A stretch of DNA of 64,000 nt, from positions 4,359-68,358 of the forward strand of contig JAWKHR010000018.1 in NCBI GenBank assembly GCA_041394725.1, given 5' to 3'. Both the position numbers and the translations under genes were made by a program. Shown here in pieces: positions 3,483 to 64,000 of this stretch. Positions within the stretch are counted from its first letter, which is position 1, and each line of letters begins with the position of its first letter. The notes below the pieces were generated by a model, which saw only the letters and a list, made by a program, of their open reading frames with translations, did not search any database and had not been told where the DNA came from. The DNA comes from Vicinamibacterales bacterium (GTDB lineage Bacteria; Acidobacteriota; Vicinamibacteria; Vicinamibacterales; SCN-69-37).

Positions 3483-5239
3483 ATGGTCTCCCGCACCACT
3501 TCCTCGATCGTCGAAACACCTCTGGCGGACCTTCTCGAGCCCGTTTGGCGAAGCGCCACATCCCGTCGGTCACCGCCTGCCGGCGCAGGTCGAGTTGAGG
3601 ACGCCCCGGTGATGACGAGCTCGCGGAAGGCCTTGTCATCTCCATCACCAGAGCAGGCCCACGCGGCCCTTTGTAGCCCGTGCTGCCGCACCGGTCGCAC
3701 CCGCGGCCCGCGCATCGGCTTGACGGTCTGGCCACGCCGGGCGCGAAGCCCGCCTCGACGAGCCGGGACCGTCGCACACGGGTGCGGTTCCTTGCACTGC
3801 CGCAGATCCGCCGCAACAGGCGCTGGCCGCGATCAGGTTGAGCGAGCTGGCGACGAGGAACGACTCGATGCCCATGTTCACCATGTGGCCGGATGCTGCT
3901 CGGCGCGTCGTTGGTGTGCAGCGTCGAGAGCACGAGGTGGCCCGTCAGCGCGGCCTTCACCGCGATGCCCGCCGCCTCGCTGTCGCGGATTTCGGCTGAC
4001 CAGGATGATGTTCGTCCTGCCGCAGGAACGACCGCAGCACCGAGGCGAAGCCGAGCCCGACCTTGCGGACCTGCACCTGGTTGATGCCGGCGCAGCTGAA
4101 CTCGATCATCCTCGGCCGTCATGATGTTCGCGCCCGGCTGGTTGATCTGCGCGAGCGACGAGTAGAGGTGTTGGTCTTGCTGCCGTTCGTCGGGCCGGTC
4201 ACCAGCACCATCCCCCACGGTTTGCGGATGGCGCGGTCGAATCGCGCCAGCATGCGTCGGGCTCGAAGCCGAGTTTGGCCGCGTCGAGCCGGAGGCCTCC
4301 GGGTCGAGCAGGCGGAGCACGATCTTCTCGCCGAAGAGGGTCGGCAGGCACGACACGCGGAAGTCGATCTCCCCCGACCCGGCCGCGGTCGTTGAACTGC
4401 GCTCTGATGCGGCCGTCCTGCGGGAGGCGCTTCTCGGCGATGTCGAGCTTCGCCATGATCTTGATGCGCGACGAGATCGCGTCCCGGTACTTCATGCCGG
4501 GCTGCATGACCACCTGCAGCACGCCGTCGATGCGGAAGCGGATCCGCAGTTCCTTCTCGTACGGCTCGATGTGGATGTCGCTCGCGCCCCGCTGGATGGC
4601 CGAGAGCATCAGCGCGTTGACCAGCCGGATGATCGACGTCTCGCCACCCTGACGCTCGAGCGACGCCGCGTCGATCTCCTCCGCGTCGTCGATGAGCTCG
4701 AGGTCCTCGTTCGCGCCGAAGTCCCGGAGCGCCTCGTTGACCAGGTCCGACGAGGCGCCCTTGCTCTCCTTCGACGAGGGCGACGGGGACGAGCCGTTCT
4801 TCCCGTGGCCCCCGTGGGCCCCATAGGCCCGGGCGATGGCCTCCTTCATCGCCGCCTCGGACGCCACCACCGGCTCGACGTGCAGGCCGGTCATGAACTT
4901 GATGTCGTCCATGGCGAAGACGTTCGCCGGGTCGGTCATCGCCAGCGTCAGCACGGTGCCGTTCCGGCCGACGGGAATCACGTTGTAGCGCGCCGCGGTC
5001 TCGGCCGGGATCAGGCGGACCGTGCCGGCGTCGAGGTCGCACTCGGCCAGGTTCACCGAGGGCACGCCGTAGTGCTTGCTGAGGAGCGACGGGATGTCTT
5101 CGTCTTTGAGGAACCCGAGCTTGATCAGACTGGCAGCCAGACGTCCACCATTCGACCGCTGGTGGTTCATCGCCTCCTGCAGCTGGGCCGGGGTGACGCG
5201 CTTCTCGCGCAGCAGTAGTTCGCCGAGACGGACAGCCAT
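3479..5239 (-). pseudogene. pilB: Type IV pilus assembly ATPase PilB (GspE family); C-terminal half disrupted by many frameshifts (or sequence errors)
   Basis: Start ATG 5239 after AAGGAG. The N-terminal ~290 aa are clean (MAVRLGELLLREKRVTPAQLQEA ... RLPQDGRIRAQFN). Downstream motifs are scattered over all three frames: IDFRVSCLPTLFGEKIVLRLLD, LRLDAAKLGFEPD, ARFDRAIRKPWGMVLVTGPTNGSKT, EIRDSEAAGIAVKAALTGHLVLSTLHTNDAPSSI, CDRCGSTGYKG, and the terminal [13 protein letters not shown]. The TGA stop overlaps the pilT ATG. Confidence 0.85.
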
Positions 5240-5329
5240 GGCTCCTTCGCACACGGCCGTCGCCTGGGCGCGTTCGCGCGGATGCCCAGAGCCTCGGTGT
5301 CCCCCGCGGGGACTGGAGCGCCGCCCCGG

Positions 5330-6307
5330 CTAGTACCCGGCGCGGAGCGCGACCCCGAAGCCCCGGTCTCCGTCCAGCCTGCTGCGAGCGTAGTGGCCGT
5401 CCAGCCAGAAGCCGGACCAGAGCATCACACTGCCCCCCACCGTTCCGACCGGCGTCCGGCTGCCCTCCGCCTCGAGGTTCCAGCGCACGCCGCCCCGCAC
5501 AGACAGGCGCGATCCCAGACGGCTCTCGCCGCCAAAGGCGATCGTTCGACGAAGGCCGTCCCGGAGGCCGACCGTGTTCAGGTCGACATCCATAGCAAGG
5601 GTCAGGCCATCCGTCGGAAGCACGGCGACGCCCAGTCGGGCCTGCCGCTCGAGCCGGATGTCAGTTCCGTCAATCTCGCCCAGGACCGGTTCCCTCAGAT
5701 TCTTCAGGTTCACCCCGGCCCGGACCTTGACGAAGTCGAGCATCACGCCGACGTCGAGGTCAAAGCCACTCCGGGCCTCCCGCTCGATCTCCTCCAGCCG
5801 GTCGAGCGCCGCCTCGCCCGTCAGGGCCTCCGCCGGGCCGGAAACCCCGTATCCACGCACGTACTTGAGGGTGCTGCCGACGACCACGCCTGTAACGATC
5901 GTCTGCAGAATCGTCACTCCGTACTGGCGGGCTTCGAGGACCTGCCCGCGAGGCTCGCCCGAGGCCGACGGCACGAGCGACGTCTCCTGAAGCTGGGCGT
6001 ACGAGAGGCCGAGCGGCCAGCTGCCGAAGCCGGTGAACGTGGACTTGCGGCGAGTCAGACCCGGAACAGCCGGGCCCTGGAGATCACCAAACTGTGATCG
6101 ATTCCACTCGATTGTCGCTCCGTACGGCTGGCCACCCGCCAGGCCTGCGGGGTTCCAGTAGACCGCCGTCGCGTCGTCGGCCACCGCCGTGAAGGCCCCT
6201 CCCATGCCGAGGGCCCGCTCGCCAATCGCTTCCATGACGATCTGTGCGGAAGCGAACACTGGCGTGACCAACGTCAGCAGCAAGGCAGCGAGAATTCGGC
6301 GGGACAT
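5330..6307 (-). CDS. Outer-membrane beta-barrel protein (FadL/PorV-like N-terminal motif)
   Basis: ORF 5330..6388. Likely start is ATG 6307, giving signal peptide MSRRILAALLLTLVTPVFASAQ. It has GMGGAFTAVADDATAVYWNPAGLA, an amphipathic beta-strand pattern, and the C-terminus ...ALRAGY. Confidence 0.6.
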   Translation of the reverse strand: MSRRILAALLLTLVTPVFASAQIVMEAIGERALGMGGAFTAVADDATAVYWNPAGLAGGQPYGATIEWNRSQFGDLQGPAVPGLTRRKSTFTGFGSWPLGLSYAQLQETSLVPSASGEPRGQVLEARQYGVTILQTIVTGVVVGSTLKYVRGYGVSGPAEALTGEAALDRLEEIEREARSGFDLDVGVMLDFVKVRAGVNLKNLREPVLGEIDGTDIRLERQARLGVAVLPTDGLTLAMDVDLNTVGLRDGLRRTIAFGGESRLGSRLSVRGGVRWNLEAEGSRTPVGTVGGSVMLWSGFWLDGHYARSRLDGDRGFGVALRAGY

Positions 6308-6435: not shown

Positions 6436-7179
6436 ATGACCGAATCCGAAACCCCTGCCCCGTCGCCCGACATGGGCCTGCTCGCGCGTGCCATCGGCGT
6501 CATCACGTCGCCGACGGCCACGTTCCAGGCCATCGTCCAGCAGCCCCGTCCGGTGATCATCCTGCTGCTCATCGCCCTGGTCACGGGCGTGTCCGCGGCC
6601 ATCCCGCAGTTCACCGAGCGCGGGCGGCAGGCGGCCCTGCAGATGCAGGTGGAGCAGATGGAGCGCTTCACGGGGCAGCCCCTGTCGGACGAGATGTATC
6701 AGCGCATGGAGGCGCAGAGCCACTCGCCCATCGGCGGGATCGGGGCGGTCGTGGGCACGCTGATCTTCATGCCGATCATCGCGCTGTTCTTCACGGCGCT
6801 CTACTGGGCGGTGTTCAACGCGGTGCTCGGCGGGACGGCGGCCTTCAAGCAGGTGCTCGGGGTGGTCACCCACTCGATGGTGGTGCTGGCGCTGGGCGCG
6901 CTGGCCACGCTGCCCGTGCAGCTGATGTCCACGAAGTGGACGACCACGGGGCCGTTCAACCTGGCGGCGCTCGCGCCGATGCTGGCGCCCGAGAGCTTCC
7001 TCTCGCGGGTGCTGTCGGGGCTCAACGTCTTCACGATCTGGCAGATCGCCATCCTCGGCATCGGGCTGGGGGTGCTCTACAAGAAGAAACCCGGCGGGAT
7101 CACGGTGACGCTGATGGTCCTGTACGTGGTCATCGTCGTCGGCGTCGTCTCGATCTTCTCGTCGTTCATGGGCAGGTAA
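6436..7179 (+). CDS. Yip1-domain-like integral membrane protein
   Basis: ORF 6331..7179. ATG 6436 follows GGAGAGAGGG. It has about 5 hydrophobic helices and the N-terminal region GLLARAIGVITSPTATFQAIV, which is typical of bacterial Yip1/DUF1282-type proteins as I recall them. Confidence 0.55.
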   Translation: MTESETPAPSPDMGLLARAIGVITSPTATFQAIVQQPRPVIILLLIALVTGVSAAIPQFTERGRQAALQMQVEQMERFTGQPLSDEMYQRMEAQSHSPIGGIGAVVGTLIFMPIIALFFTALYWAVFNAVLGGTAAFKQVLGVVTHSMVVLALGALATLPVQLMSTKWTTTGPFNLAALAPMLAPESFLSRVLSGLNVFTIWQIAILGIGLGVLYKKKPGGITVTLMVLYVVIVVGVVSIFSSFMGR

Positions 7180-20737: not shown

Positions 20738-20895
20738 CTGGGTGATCCTCGCAAACTCGGAAGTCCGAAGGTCGAACTTCGAACCTCTGGCGGGCGGCCC
20801 TGCCGCCGACCTCTCACTTCACTCCACGACCCGACCGGCGGCGCCGACGGCGCCCACCGGTGTTCGAACTTCGACGTTCGACGTGCCCCGTACCC

Positions 20896-21330
20896 TCAGA
20901 CCCGCCGCTTCTTCGGCGGCCGGCAGCCGTTGTGCGGGATCGGCGTGACGTCGCGGATGGACTTCACGTCGATGCCCACGGTCTGGAGCGCGCGGATCGC
21001 CGACTCGCGCCCGGCGCCGGGCCCCTTGACCCGCACCTCCAGCGACCGGAGGCCGAACGCCTTGGCGGCGTTGCCGGCGGCCATCGCCGCCTGGGTCGCC
21101 GCGAACGGCGTGCCCTTGCGCGAGCCCTTGAACCCGATCCCGCCCGCGCTCGACCACGCGATCACGTTGCCCTCGGTGTCGGTAATCGTGATCGTGGTGT
21201 TGTTGAACGACGCCTGGATGTGGGCGAAGCCGTGGTGCACCACGCGCTTCTCGCCGCGCTTCTTGAACGTCTTCTTGCGCTTGGCGGGCTTGCCCGACTC
21301 GGCGCCGCCTTCGGCTTGCGTCTTGGCCAT
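20896..21330 (-). CDS. rpsK: 30S ribosomal protein S11
   Basis: Has ...[19 protein letters not shown]...[10 protein letters not shown]. 144 aa. Confidence 0.97.
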
Positions 21331-21333
21331 CTG

Positions 21334-46414: not shown

Positions 46415-48553
<2,139 letters not shown>

Positions 48554-53759: not shown

Positions 53760-54564
53760 TTAACACGACGAGCATCGCCGCTCCCACTGACAGTAGTTCG
53801 GCTCCACGCAGCCGGACGAGAACGTCCAGACGCATCGGCCGATGGCAGGCTCACAGCATTTCTGTTGGGGTAGCCGTTGATCGTCTTCGCCTGCAATCGA
53901 TGTCACCGCCGCACGTGGGCGCGTCCGGACAGATCGATTGGCTTGGAACTGTGCAGTGACCCTCCAATGGACTGTCGGAGACGCGCCACGTCGTTGCTGC
54001 AGCAAGTCCCGAGCTCCCTGGCATACCTCCGCAGGCAGGGGGATCTCCAACCTCCGGAGACTCAGGGACGCAGCAGTGACCAGGCGAGCAGATTTCTGCC
54101 ACTTCCACACTGGCCGTTCGTCTGACACCGAGCATTCTCCACGGCGCGGAGCTGCAGTCGTCTTCACAACAACTCCCTGACGCAGACTCCCACGGGTGCT
54201 GGCACACCCCATCTCCGCAGTGCCCACAATCGTAGATGCACTCCCTGAAGGTCCTCGCCGATCTCCGGCGAACAGTACGTGTCTCCGCAGTACCCGCAGT
54301 CTTCCGGGCAGTTGCCGCCGTCCTCCAGGCATCCGTCGCCCGGCGTTTCGTTACCTCCGGAAACCGCAGCCCTCCTCCCAGCAGGTCCCGTCTCCGCTAC
54401 GCGGTCCGGCCCGCGGCGGCCGCCGCCGCCGGCGCACCGGCGAACGCCAACGACGGCCAAGGCCCGTTCTTCCGGCGGCGGTGCCTGGTGGTCGCAGGCT
54501 CATGTGACAGAAACGCGACCACCAGCAGCGCCGCGTATCTCACGTTCGTCATCGTCTTCTCCAT
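53760..54564 (-). pseudogene. Secreted cysteine-rich protein with CxxDCGxCGDxxC repeats; at least 3 frameshifts
   Basis: ATG 54564 follows GGGAGGTGGG and gives the signal-like MEKTMTNVRYAALLVVAFLS. Cys-rich segments follow in three frames: GGNETPGDGCLEDGGNCPEDCGYCGDTYCSPEIGEDL; ECIYDCGHCGDGVCQHPWESASGSCCEDDC...ICSPGHCCVPES...CPDAPTCGGDIDC; and ...QQKCCEPAIGRCVWTFSSGCVEPNYCQWERRCSSC* (stop at 53760). Confidence 0.55.
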
Positions 54565-54673
54565 CCCACCTCCCGGCACGATCTCGCTTCCCGCCGGAGT
54601 CGCGGCCGGCCCTGTTCCGGCGACACGCCGCGGGCCGGGTCTCCCGGGACGAGGCAGTCCGCACCATCGCGGT

Positions 54674-55437
54674 TCACTGGCTCGCCAGCAGCCCTCGATG
54701 ACCCGCTGAACGCCGCCATCGGCGCTGAGCGCCAACCAGGCGTCGGTCACGTCCACGCGGCCATCGGACCTGAGGCGGCCCAGGAAGAATCCCGGGGTCC
54801 CGGACATGCCCACCGCACGGCCTGTCGCCCTCGGCCTGAACCTTGGCCGTCGCTTCACCAGATAGAGAGCTATCGAAAACCGCCGGGTCCGTGGAGCTCC
54901 ACCGCCAGCGGGAAGCCAGGCTCGAGACGGGAGCTGCGACTGCTCGGCGAAGAGCCGGTCGTGCATCGCCCAGAACTTGCCCTGCCGCCCAGCGCACTCG
55001 GCCGCCTCCGCCGCCTTCAGCCAGCGGATGCAACTGCGGCAGCAGGATGGCGGATAGGCGAAGAGCACCTTTGCCCGTGGCGACGTACTGGCGGTCCAGT
55101 TCGGGCAGGGTCTCGGCGGCAAATCGCCCGCAGAAGGGGCACTGGAAGTCCGGCACTCGACCATGGCCAGCGGGGCGTTCCGGGTGCCGCGCAGCGCGGC
55201 ACCCTCGAGCGTGATCGGCTCGCCCGGCAGCGCCGGTGGTGGCGGCGGAGGCGGATTCTCCGGCGCATTGGTTCGTGTCGTCCGGACCGTGGGCTCGACG
55301 GTGATCACGTGAATGCCCGTCATCGCATCGACCATCAGCAGTCCGACGGCGATGATGAGCAGCGTCGCGACGAGGCCCAGAACCGCCTTCACATGATCGA
55401 GCAGTGCAAGAAGCCCACGACTGGACGGTTGCGCCAT
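54674..55437 (-). pseudogene. DsbA-family thiol:disulfide oxidoreductase, membrane-anchored; frameshifted
   Basis: Frame 1 gives a TM anchor (LGLVATLLIIAVGLLMV), a Pro-rich linker, LPGEPITLEGAALRGTRNAPLAMVE, and later AAEAAECAGRQGKFWAMHDRLFAEQSQL and GMSGTPGFFLGRLRSDGRV. The active site DFQCPFCGRFAAETLPELDRQYVATGK is in the frame of ORF 54674..55156. Confidence 0.7.
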
Positions 55438-55543
55438 CAGATGCCTCCCAAGAAAGGCAGACTACCGGCTCGAGCCGTCAGGATTCTCATTCGGAAATCG
55501 CCGATGCCCCAAGGACATCCGTCACCATCGAGCAGGGCAATTG

Positions 55544-56226
55544 TCACGGGCCCACAGCCGCGGTCTTCCCGTCACACTCCGGCCACCGCGCCAGCGCGAG
55601 TACCAGCACCCCACGCCGCCGCCTCAGGGATCCATTCCGCTCGAGCTCGGCCAGCAGGCGGCCGAGATGTTCGCGGCTGACCCCGACCAGCTGCGCGAGT
55701 TCGCCGAGCGTCACCGGGAGCGCCAGTTCGATGTGTCCCCGGCGCCGCGGCGACTGGAGCTGCGTCGCGAGCCGGACGACGGTTCGCCTGAGACGCTCCG
55801 GCGCGGGATACACCGCCATCTCGCCTCGGAGGATGTCGTCGATGCGTGTCTGTCGGGCGAGCAGATCGAGGACGCGCCGGCAAGATCCGGGCTCTGCCGC
55901 ACGTGGCTGAGAAAGGTGGCCACCGGCAGCGAACGAAGCCGACACCGCGTCGCCGCGACACCGGACGTCGCGTAGGGCCGGTCGAGGAGGGCCGACGACG
56001 CACCAAGCAGCCACCCGCTCCCCCGCAGGGCGATCAGCGCGTCGTCGTCCCGCTCACGGCGAATCGTCTTCACGAAGCCCGAGGCGATCAGGCCGACGGC
56101 CGATGGCCGGTGTCCTTGATGAAACAGCGGCGTCCCCGCAGGGAACTCCTCGACCGGACCGAACCCCGCGGCATCCGCCCACTCCGCATGCGCCTCCATG
56201 TCCCCCTCGCGCCCAAGCCCCGCCAT
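55544..56226 (-). pseudogene. Crp/Fnr-family transcriptional regulator; single frameshift near 55,875
   Basis: ORF 55711..56226 carries the cNMP-binding-like domain (FPAGTPLFHQGHRPSAVGLIASGFVKTIRRERDDDALIALRGSGWLLGASSAL...RLRSLPVATFLSHVRQSPDL). ORF 55544..56014, in another frame, continues with RRVLDLLARQTRIDDILRGEM...LALPVTLGELAQLVGVSREHLGRLLAELERNGSL (HTH_Crp). Confidence 0.75.
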
Positions 56227-56239
56227 CGAGCCTGGGGGA

Positions 56240-56297
56240 GCGTTGGCGTTGTTGGCGTTTATGCTGGCGTTGGCGTTGGCGTTGGCGTTGGCGCTGG
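56240..56297. repeat. Hexanucleotide tandem repeat (GGCGTT)n, about 9 units (2 degenerate)
   Basis: The sequence is GCGTTGGCGTTGTTGGCGTTTATGCTGGCGTTGGCGTTGGCGTTGGCGTTGGCGCTGG. It lies 14 nt upstream of the Crp/Fnr ATG (56226). The in-frame upstream region has no start codon before a TAG, so the repeat is non-coding. Confidence 0.9.
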
Positions 56298-56461: not shown

Positions 56462-56487
56462 GGCGCCGCGGCTTCCGCCGCGGCGCC
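56462..56487 (-). terminator. GC-rich hairpin downstream of rpoC (terminator candidate)
   Basis: GGCGCCGCGGC-TTCC-GCCGCGGCGCC is a perfect 11-bp stem about 160 nt after the rpoC stop. There is no clear U-tract on either strand. Confidence 0.4.
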
Positions 56488-56502
56488 TTCGATGAGGGAG
56501 TC

Positions 56503-56640
56503 CTCAATCTATCAATCTATCAATCAGCCAATCTTTCAATCAGCCAATCAGCCAATCAGCCAATCATCGCTCTCTCAATCGACAATCACCCGATCGACAA
56601 TCACCAATCAATCCTCAATCACCGATCATCAATCCGCAAT
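56503..56640. repeat. CAATC-rich repeat array: 8 tandem 8-mers CAATCNNN (56505-56568) plus degenerate copies
   Basis: The array reads CAATCTAT CAATCTAT CAATCAGC CAATCTTT CAATCAGC CAATCAGC CAATCAGC CAATCATC, then CAATCGA CAATCACCCGATCGA CAATCAC CAATCAATCCT CAATCACCGATCAT CAATCCG CAATGG. I count about 15 CAATC in 138 bp. It is AT-rich relative to its surroundings and begins 5 nt after the rpoC stop. Confidence 0.95.
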
Positions 56641-56644
56641 GGCT

Positions 56645-64000
<7,356 letters not shown>

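Follow-up and report, generated by a model that had tools for sequence, protein, structure and literature searches.

The array of GATTG units found downstream of rpoC in the Vicinamibacterales DNA analysed here, a stretch of 64,000 nucleotides referred to below as the window, is best explained, with a probability of roughly 60%, as a hypervariable long simple-sequence repeat (LSSR) with an octamer unit and a GATTG core, occupying the untranslated stretch from the rpoC stop codon to a GC hairpin. This reading is carried by properties that the array shares with the LSSR class: a head-to-tail unit within the 5-11 nt range forms an array longer than chance, the location is non-coding, and turnover among relatives is fast, as seen from orthologous slots and from rplK-rplA spacers of 74-208 nt beside identical L11 genes.

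The array (56505-56640, minus strand) consists of the motif GATTG in the rpoC sense, which is CAATC on the + strand. Motif counting located 15 CAATC between 56505 and 56634, all of them on the same strand, and only 34 CAATC, both strands together, in the remaining ~63.9 kb of the window. The array is far beyond chance, with 15 copies observed against 0.037 expected in 138 nt at the rest-of-window rate (Poisson P ~2e-34). An earlier sequence-only reading of this DNA, which had reported about 15 copies 3' of rpoC including eight 8-mers in perfect phase, was accurate on both numbers, the eight head-to-tail octamers being in exact 8-nt register at 56505-56568 (minus strand) by motif spacing and TRF. 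Read on the + strand from 56505, these regular units are CAATCTAT (twice), CAATCAGC, CAATCTTT, CAATCAGC (three times) and CAATCATC; in the rpoC sense they correspond to GATTGNNN, as four GATTGGCT, two GATTGATA, one GATTGAAA and one GATGATTG, and the repeat can also be written (GAUUGNNN)n or (GAUUGGCU)n. TRF returned a period of 8, 5.8 copies and a score of 71 for the array, plus overlapping rows. The irregular part (56569-56640, minus strand), delimited by motif spacing, holds seven further GATTG copies spaced at 14, 7, 4, 7, 15, 7 and 15 nt, and contains a 13-nt higher-order duplicate, GGTGATTGTCGAT, present twice. The array is imperfect, its units having a core of 5 conserved nt and a tail of 3 variable ones. 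The same reading had placed the octamers first after the stop codon and the irregular copies behind them; both parts exist, but their order is the reverse, since in the rpoC sense the first GATTG begins 11 nt past the stop, the irregular copies are proximal to rpoC, and the eight in-phase units are distal, adjoining the hairpin.

The array is AT-rich for this genome, as had been noticed earlier, with a GC content of 0.49-0.52 against 0.65-0.75 in the flanks, and its sense strand is strongly asymmetric (35% G, 8% C; GC skew +0.63). ATTGG occurs five times and CTGATTGG twice in the rpoC sense, in agreement with the earlier counts. GGG occurs once in the whole 138 nt, the regular units containing GG only with 6-nt loops between. 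The array is non-coding, with the rpoC stop (56645) on one side of it and the next gene (56226) on the other. The only open reading frame across it (56492-61042, + strand) runs antisense to rpoC and shows no separate coding signal, and 17 TGA are present in the rpoC sense, so that the array was rejected as coding sequence, as the sequence-only reading had already held. UGA occurs in all three frames, an automatic by-product of the repeat unit; a role as back-up stop codons was discarded on this ground and because several relatives' arrays hold no stop codons. Likewise, a Shine-Dalgarno-like binding of ribosomes was dismissed, the array containing only two GAGGA. The units, being 8 nt long, head-to-tail and without spacers, are also distinct from the 23-50 nt repeats with unique spacers of CRISPR, in line with the earlier exclusion of that possibility.

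The array is situated at the end of the rpoBC genes. rpoC (56645-60856, minus strand; stop codon TAG at 56645-56647) overlaps the rpoB stop by 4 nt (60853-60856), and the array is followed, 17 nt further, by the perfect 11-bp GC stem described earlier (56462-56487, minus strand; GGCGCCGCGGC-TTCC-GCCGCGGCGCC, with a 4-nt loop). No T-run follows this hairpin and the terminator scan gave no site, so that an intrinsic terminator was rejected for the window; in relatives, the place of this T-less hairpin is taken by a terminator made of a hairpin and a T-run. Within this intergenic region of 420 nt lies another tandem array, of ~10 copies (56240-56297, minus strand), (GCCAAC)n in the rpoC sense and (GCGTTG)n on the + strand, the sense strand of which is C-rich and which stops ~14 nt ahead of a Crp/Fnr-like ORF. 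Domain matches assign this ORF to a Crp/Fnr-type regulator gene (55544-56226, minus strand) that is split over two frames, cNMP_binding (55711-56226) and HTH_Crp_2 (55544-56014) being in differing reading frames. Further on, a Thioredoxin_4 fragment (54674-55156) was observed inside an ORF of another frame, and the coding signal is weak throughout 52.9-56.6 kb. The two genes downstream of rpoC (54397-56226) look broken, and are either pseudogenes or the product of indel errors in a long-read assembly. The GATTG array was not retained as a CRP/FNR-type operator for the neighbouring Crp-like gene, as on inspection its direct repeats have no dyad symmetry of the kind required. Rfam gave no match in the window at the gathering threshold, and a permissive search returned only chance-level matches far under the thresholds.

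Two further repeats were observed in the window. At 20862-20884, (GTCGAAC)x3 lies 14 nt past the stop of a minus-strand gene (20896-21333), with a GGCGCC..GGCGCC hairpin after it, repeating the rpoC plan of stop codon, array and GC hairpin in miniature. At 48363-48439, a perfect hexamer, (TGCTGT) x12.8 with 100% matches, encodes a run of over 25 glutamines close to the N-terminus of an ORF of 712 aa (46415-48553, minus strand).

Relatives were sought with the C-terminal 300 residues of RpoC, which matched Acidobacteriota and, as best matches, Vicinamibacterales MAGs; closer metagenomic relatives (89-96% identity) were obtained through the protein database. An exact look-up of the window's RpoC showed the protein not to be on record. 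Among relatives whose RpoC is 88-96% identical, the slot that extends from the rpoC stop to the hairpin usually contains a tandem array of 7-9 nt units, with a unit that differs per genome, and at least 10 Vicinamibacterales relatives carry an array of a different unit in this slot. The closest relative found, L201 (RpoC 96%), has ATTTGCR merging into GATTGG; L202 (93%) has ATCGNNNN, L204 (91%) GAAGTNNN and L002 (88%) GATTGAC. The arrays after the rpoC stop are CGACGGGTA x6 in L207/L208, GTGAAGAAC x3 in L209, AAGTTC in L206, GAAGTTA in L003, AATTTAC in L005, AGCAGGC in L013 and AGGTGTC in L050. No array follows the rpoC stop in L203 (RpoC 91%) and L001; absence from close relatives, named beforehand by the sequence-only reading as a result against a function, was thus observed. 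Its alternative of an expanded microsatellite is borne out by the data, since the same slot holds unrelated units or none in relatives and GATT-core spacers vary beside identical L11.

Downstream of the rpoC arrays, relatives share a conserved hairpin, GGGCGCGC..GCGCGCCC followed by Ts, and terminator-scan-positive sites were found directly after the arrays of L002 and L201. Of 46 rpoC 3' ends, 9 reached a periodicity score of at least 9; among 80 3' ends of other genes in these loci, only 2 did (Fisher P = 0.002), and one of these two is that of rpoB. Judged from the genomes compared, the rpoC 3' end is a recurrent home of arrays, the sequence of which is not conserved. The window, L201 and L002 have a GATT(T)G core in common and are partly alignable beside the rpoC stop, so that the GATTG flavour is probably shared by a sub-lineage. 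In L201 (1360-1613), the rpoC terminator hairpin was observed to lie between 33-nt inverted arms of ATTTGCR units that are 97% complementary; with this arrangement, both convergent transcripts would read the same array ahead of the shared hairpin.

GATT-core arrays were also searched for in metagenomes with the pattern CAATCN3 x4, that is, four in-phase CAATC units. The 120 hits were for the most part low-GC contigs of no relevance, because the pattern also matches (CAAT)n microsatellites, and only ~10 high-GC contigs were informative; as the hits were chosen by the CAATC pattern itself, the recurrence of the core among them is partly ascertainment and is no measure of its enrichment across metagenomes. 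One contig, L133, encodes an RpoB 93% identical to that of the window and carries rplK-rplA-rplJ-rplL-rpoB, with sense-oriented GATTG arrays behind the stops of rplK and rplJ (3756-3884 and 5223-5405). About 17 GATTG units directly follow the rplK stop, the outer part of which pairs with an inverted CAATC arm to give a long hairpin, and rplJ is followed by a (GGATTGR)n array, the first unit of which includes the rplJ stop codon. At the end of the same contig, upstream of nusG/rplK, an octamer array pair, (AATGGGGC)n and (TGCCTCAT)n, occupies 6788-6940.

The rate of change of such arrays is apparent from contigs with identical L11 (L220-L228), among which the rplK-rplA spacer is 74, 87, 114 or 208 nt long. 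Its 3' part is constant in all of them, whereas its 5' part, directly past the stop, is variable and composed of GATTG, GATTA and GATTT units; an inverted arm is present in the 208-nt form. In these contigs, the rplJ-rplL spacers contain six GATT-core units, and the rpmG-secE spacer measures 123 or 207 nt according to the absence or presence of an 84-nt array pair, (AAATGNCN)n with inverted (CATTTCGG)n; in a related lineage from Lake Tanganyika, rpmG is followed by (TGGGCGGT)x3.5 instead. GATT-core units are the commonest flavour of this lineage in the rplKAJL-rpoBC cluster. Other high-GC contigs show the order stop codon, (GATTGAGA or GATTGGGA)n and inverted partner, a plan seen after genes for L25/Ctc, 2-oxoacid dehydrogenase E1 and aldehyde dehydrogenase. 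In every example examined, the sense strand is G-rich in arrays after ORFs and C-rich in arrays before ORFs, and the window obeys this rule, its rpoC array having a G-rich and the array before the Crp-like gene a C-rich sense strand. In Terriglobia, the rpoB-rpoC spacer was observed to contain a heptamer array directly past the rpoB stop and its inverted complement before the rpoC start (L049 2529-2668, L047 2502-2673 and L036 2509-2665; also L023, L026, L031, L044, L053 and L066). The Terriglobia units vary by genome (GTCGTTG/CGACCAA, AGTGGCC/GGCCACT, CAGTACT/AGTACTG), and unit and inverted partner co-vary between genomes, indicating that a long stem is kept while its sequence changes.

Under the LSSR reading, the array would have originated from a short seed of GATT type, through replication slippage or unequal exchange, as is suggested by identical neighbouring units (GATTGGCT x3, GATTGATA x2) and by the 13-nt higher-order duplicate. 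It would be one of a lineage-wide population of arrays placed in Vicinamibacterales directly after stops, with a G-rich sense strand, or directly before starts, with a C-rich one. The array is probably transcribed as the rpoC 3' UTR, since relatives carry canonical terminators just past their arrays, and the GC hairpin may end or stabilise the rpoC transcript. Because unrelated units occupy the same slot in relatives, the exact sequence would be immaterial and without a reader, and any contribution would be generic, namely that of a C-poor, G/U-rich stretch of ~140 nt forming only weak G-U/A-U hairpins, which could space the terminating ribosome from the GC hairpin. Pure neutrality, however, predicts neither the recurrence at the rpoC 3' end nor a GATT core at three places of one cluster. 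Some selection may be at work here, or a factor that generates or binds such units in a sequence-specific way, and the strictness of the strand orientation hints at a constraint at transcript level. Functional readings stay alive because neutrality alone does not explain why arrays recur at the 3' ends of rpoB and rpoC, why one core is re-used within a gene cluster and why the orientation is fixed.

The functional role first suggested for the array was that of a docking platform for a cold-shock-domain or other sequence-specific protein, each GAUUG in RNA, or ATTGG on DNA or ssDNA, docking a small single-strand-binding domain (cold-shock, S1, KH or similar) and so altering rpoC mRNA stability or termination. 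The 7-8 nt period suits single-strand-binding domains, the footprint of a cold-shock domain being ~6-7 nt, and the ATTGG (CCAAT) core of the Y-box is present in the array. In addition, the GATT(G) core is re-used after rplK, rplJ and rpoC in this lineage and in L002, L016 and L201, and GATTG-type arrays follow the L25/Ctc ribosomal-protein gene of the high-GC contig L107, although this recurrence is partly due to hits having been picked by the CAATC pattern. The core is not conserved at the orthologous position, where most relatives' arrays, such as those of GAAGTNNN, CGACGGGTA, GTGAAGAAC, ATCGNNNN and AATTTAC, have no ATTGG; orthologous slots at 89-93% RpoC identity hold unrelated units with neither ATTGG nor GATTG, L203 and L001 have no array, and array length is highly variable beside identical neighbouring proteins. 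Cold-shock or Y-box docking as a conserved function is therefore unsupported, an ATTGG-dependent docking site appears unlikely from these comparisons, and the broader docking platform is rather improbable. The idea of cold-shock docking is not absurd, given that Csp, S1 and CsrA are listed as candidate binders of TAACTGA repeats (MacGregor 2015, PMC4679880), but it draws no support from the present data. It is likewise quite improbable that GATT-core arrays are a lineage-specific post-transcriptional cis-element after rplK, rplJ and rpoC, read as ssRNA either by the ribosome or by some small and abundant RNA-binding protein, with copy number tuning mRNA decay, intercistronic processing or termination. 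If so, slippage would serve evolution as a rheostat by which the stoichiometry of RNA polymerase and of ribosomal proteins is set, and unit and reader would have co-evolved in other lineages.

The array could be a stem arm or a set of weak hairpins which, with the GC hairpin, shields the rpoBC transcript at its 3' end or provides a site for processing. Inverted array pairs around a central hairpin in L201, L209, the L133 rplK-rplA spacer, L221/L222, L107, L152 and L164, together with the Terriglobia rpoB-rpoC heptamer arrays that co-vary with their inverted partners, make a stem-arm role well supported for relatives. In the window itself, the array alone folds at -40.6 kcal/mol against -29.7 kcal/mol for shuffled sequence (z = -3.4), but its internal hairpins depend on G-U and A-U pairs, no CAATC-type inverted partner occurs within the window, and the z-score of the whole-spacer fold is only -2.3. 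In the minimum-free-energy fold of the entire spacer, (GAUUGGCU)n is paired with (GCCAAC)n; this pairing was rejected, as the duplex energy of -37.0 kcal/mol is that of random 58-mers from the window (mean -36.6 kcal/mol, 48% equal or better). A structural RNA is accordingly an unlikely account of the window array. The strand asymmetry, with a sense GC skew of +0.63, and the orientation rule found in all examples examined, and also in PMC4692102, would suit a directional insulator in which the antisense (CAAUCNNN)n, with 35% C and 8% G, is a Rho loading site halting transcription into rpoC from downstream, (GCCAAC)n acting likewise on rpoC read-through. This proposal is inferred from composition alone; neither a promoter-like site nor a + strand gene that might drive antisense transcription was found downstream, and several relatives' arrays, for example GATTACC, AATTTAC and CGACGGGTA, have no C/G skew, which leaves it very doubtful. 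Non-B DNA or a G-quadruplex, as proposed for GGGNATC repeats, is scarcely tenable: at least four tracts of three or more G are present in L107 ((GGGAGATT)x4), L016 ((GGGGGATT)n) and L210 ((TGGGCGGT)x3.5), whereas the window units have GG only with 6-nt loops and the array contains a single GGG, so that the G-quadruplex was rejected for the window array, which holds fewer than the four G3 tracts needed.

On the LSSR reading, the array taken alone is an ordinary member of a known, functionally unexplained repeat class. The comparison adds that many such arrays are carried by Acidobacteriota (Vicinamibacterales and Terriglobia), in fixed strand orientation directly past stops and often as inverted pairs around a hairpin, with the 3' ends of rpoB, rpoC and ribosomal-protein genes as recurrent sites. 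The clustering of arrays at the stops of rplKAJL-rpoBC in Vicinamibacterales and the co-varying arrays of Terriglobia may deserve a census more than the single array does. Should the class have a function in 3' UTRs or in the spacers between cistrons, it could conveniently be tested in these operons, which are highly expressed and conserved universally; should it have no function, the arrays would be hypervariable markers for strain typing of soil and freshwater Acidobacteriota.

Enterobacterial REP/BIME are dispersed imperfect palindromes of ~35 nt. They resemble the window array in being non-coding, in their position at gene 3' ends or between convergent genes and in possible transcript hairpins, as generally understood for REP, and differ from it in that the array is made of tandem 7-8 nt units, not of dispersed palindromes. 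Cyanobacterial STRR consist of 7-nt units repeated in tandem in the non-coding DNA that follows genes. Their units are similar to those of the arrays between rpoB and rpoC in Terriglobia (CAGTACT, TTGGTCG, ACTGACC), whereas the window array differs from STRR in phylum, unit sequence and period. Heptanucleotides of this type were reported in Calothrix PCC7601 by Mazel et al. 1990, as cited in PMC4692102.

More generally, repeats of 5-11 nt are over-represented in large, high-GC genomes, heptamers being the commonest and slippage the proposed origin; they vary among close relatives, are transcribed, and lie preferentially within 50 bp past stops on the sense strand (PMC4692102; PMC4679880, summarising Mrazek 2007). 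As portrayed in PMC4679880 and PMC4692102, LSSRs are intergenic, with a single preferred unit per lineage. In these accounts, the LSSRs of Mrazek et al. 2007 share with the window array head-to-tail 7-8 nt units, an intergenic location in a large high-GC genome, a length far beyond chance, variation of unit and copy number among close relatives and a likely origin by slippage; unlike their commonest heptamer, the window unit is an octamer and the array is imperfect. The statement of the sequence-only reading that no element like this had been described downstream of rpoC was too strong, since 5-11 nt tandem repeats just past stops are documented in PMC4692102 and PMC4679880; the literature consulted yielded no description of such repeats in Acidobacteriota or Vicinamibacterales. 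The GGGAATC/GGGGA(C/T)T heptamers of Xanthomonas and Nostoc (Rehm et al. 2015, PMC4692102) are similar in lying within ~50 nt past a stop with a G-rich sense strand, as does the window array, or upstream of an ORF with a C-rich one, and also in their inverted pairs, one preferred unit per lineage, variability among relatives and a shared GATT/AATC element. For these GGGNATC repeats, inverted pairs are occasional, most copies are transcribed and no function has been identified (PMC4692102). Unlike them, the window array has no series of G3 tracts and so does not show the quadruplex property that defines that class, whereas the arrays of L016, L107 and L210 have G3 tracts. The TAACTGA heptamers of Beggiatoaceae, cyanobacteria and Bacteroidetes (MacGregor 2015, PMC4679880) are also short tandem intergenic units over-represented in translation and ribosomal-protein operons, but they lie mostly just upstream of starts, in 2-6 copies, and their exact heptamer is conserved genome-wide. 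With the cyanobacterial STRR, the Xanthomonas GGGAATC and the Beggiatoa TAACTGA repeats, the array downstream of rpoC belongs to a class already known in bacteria.
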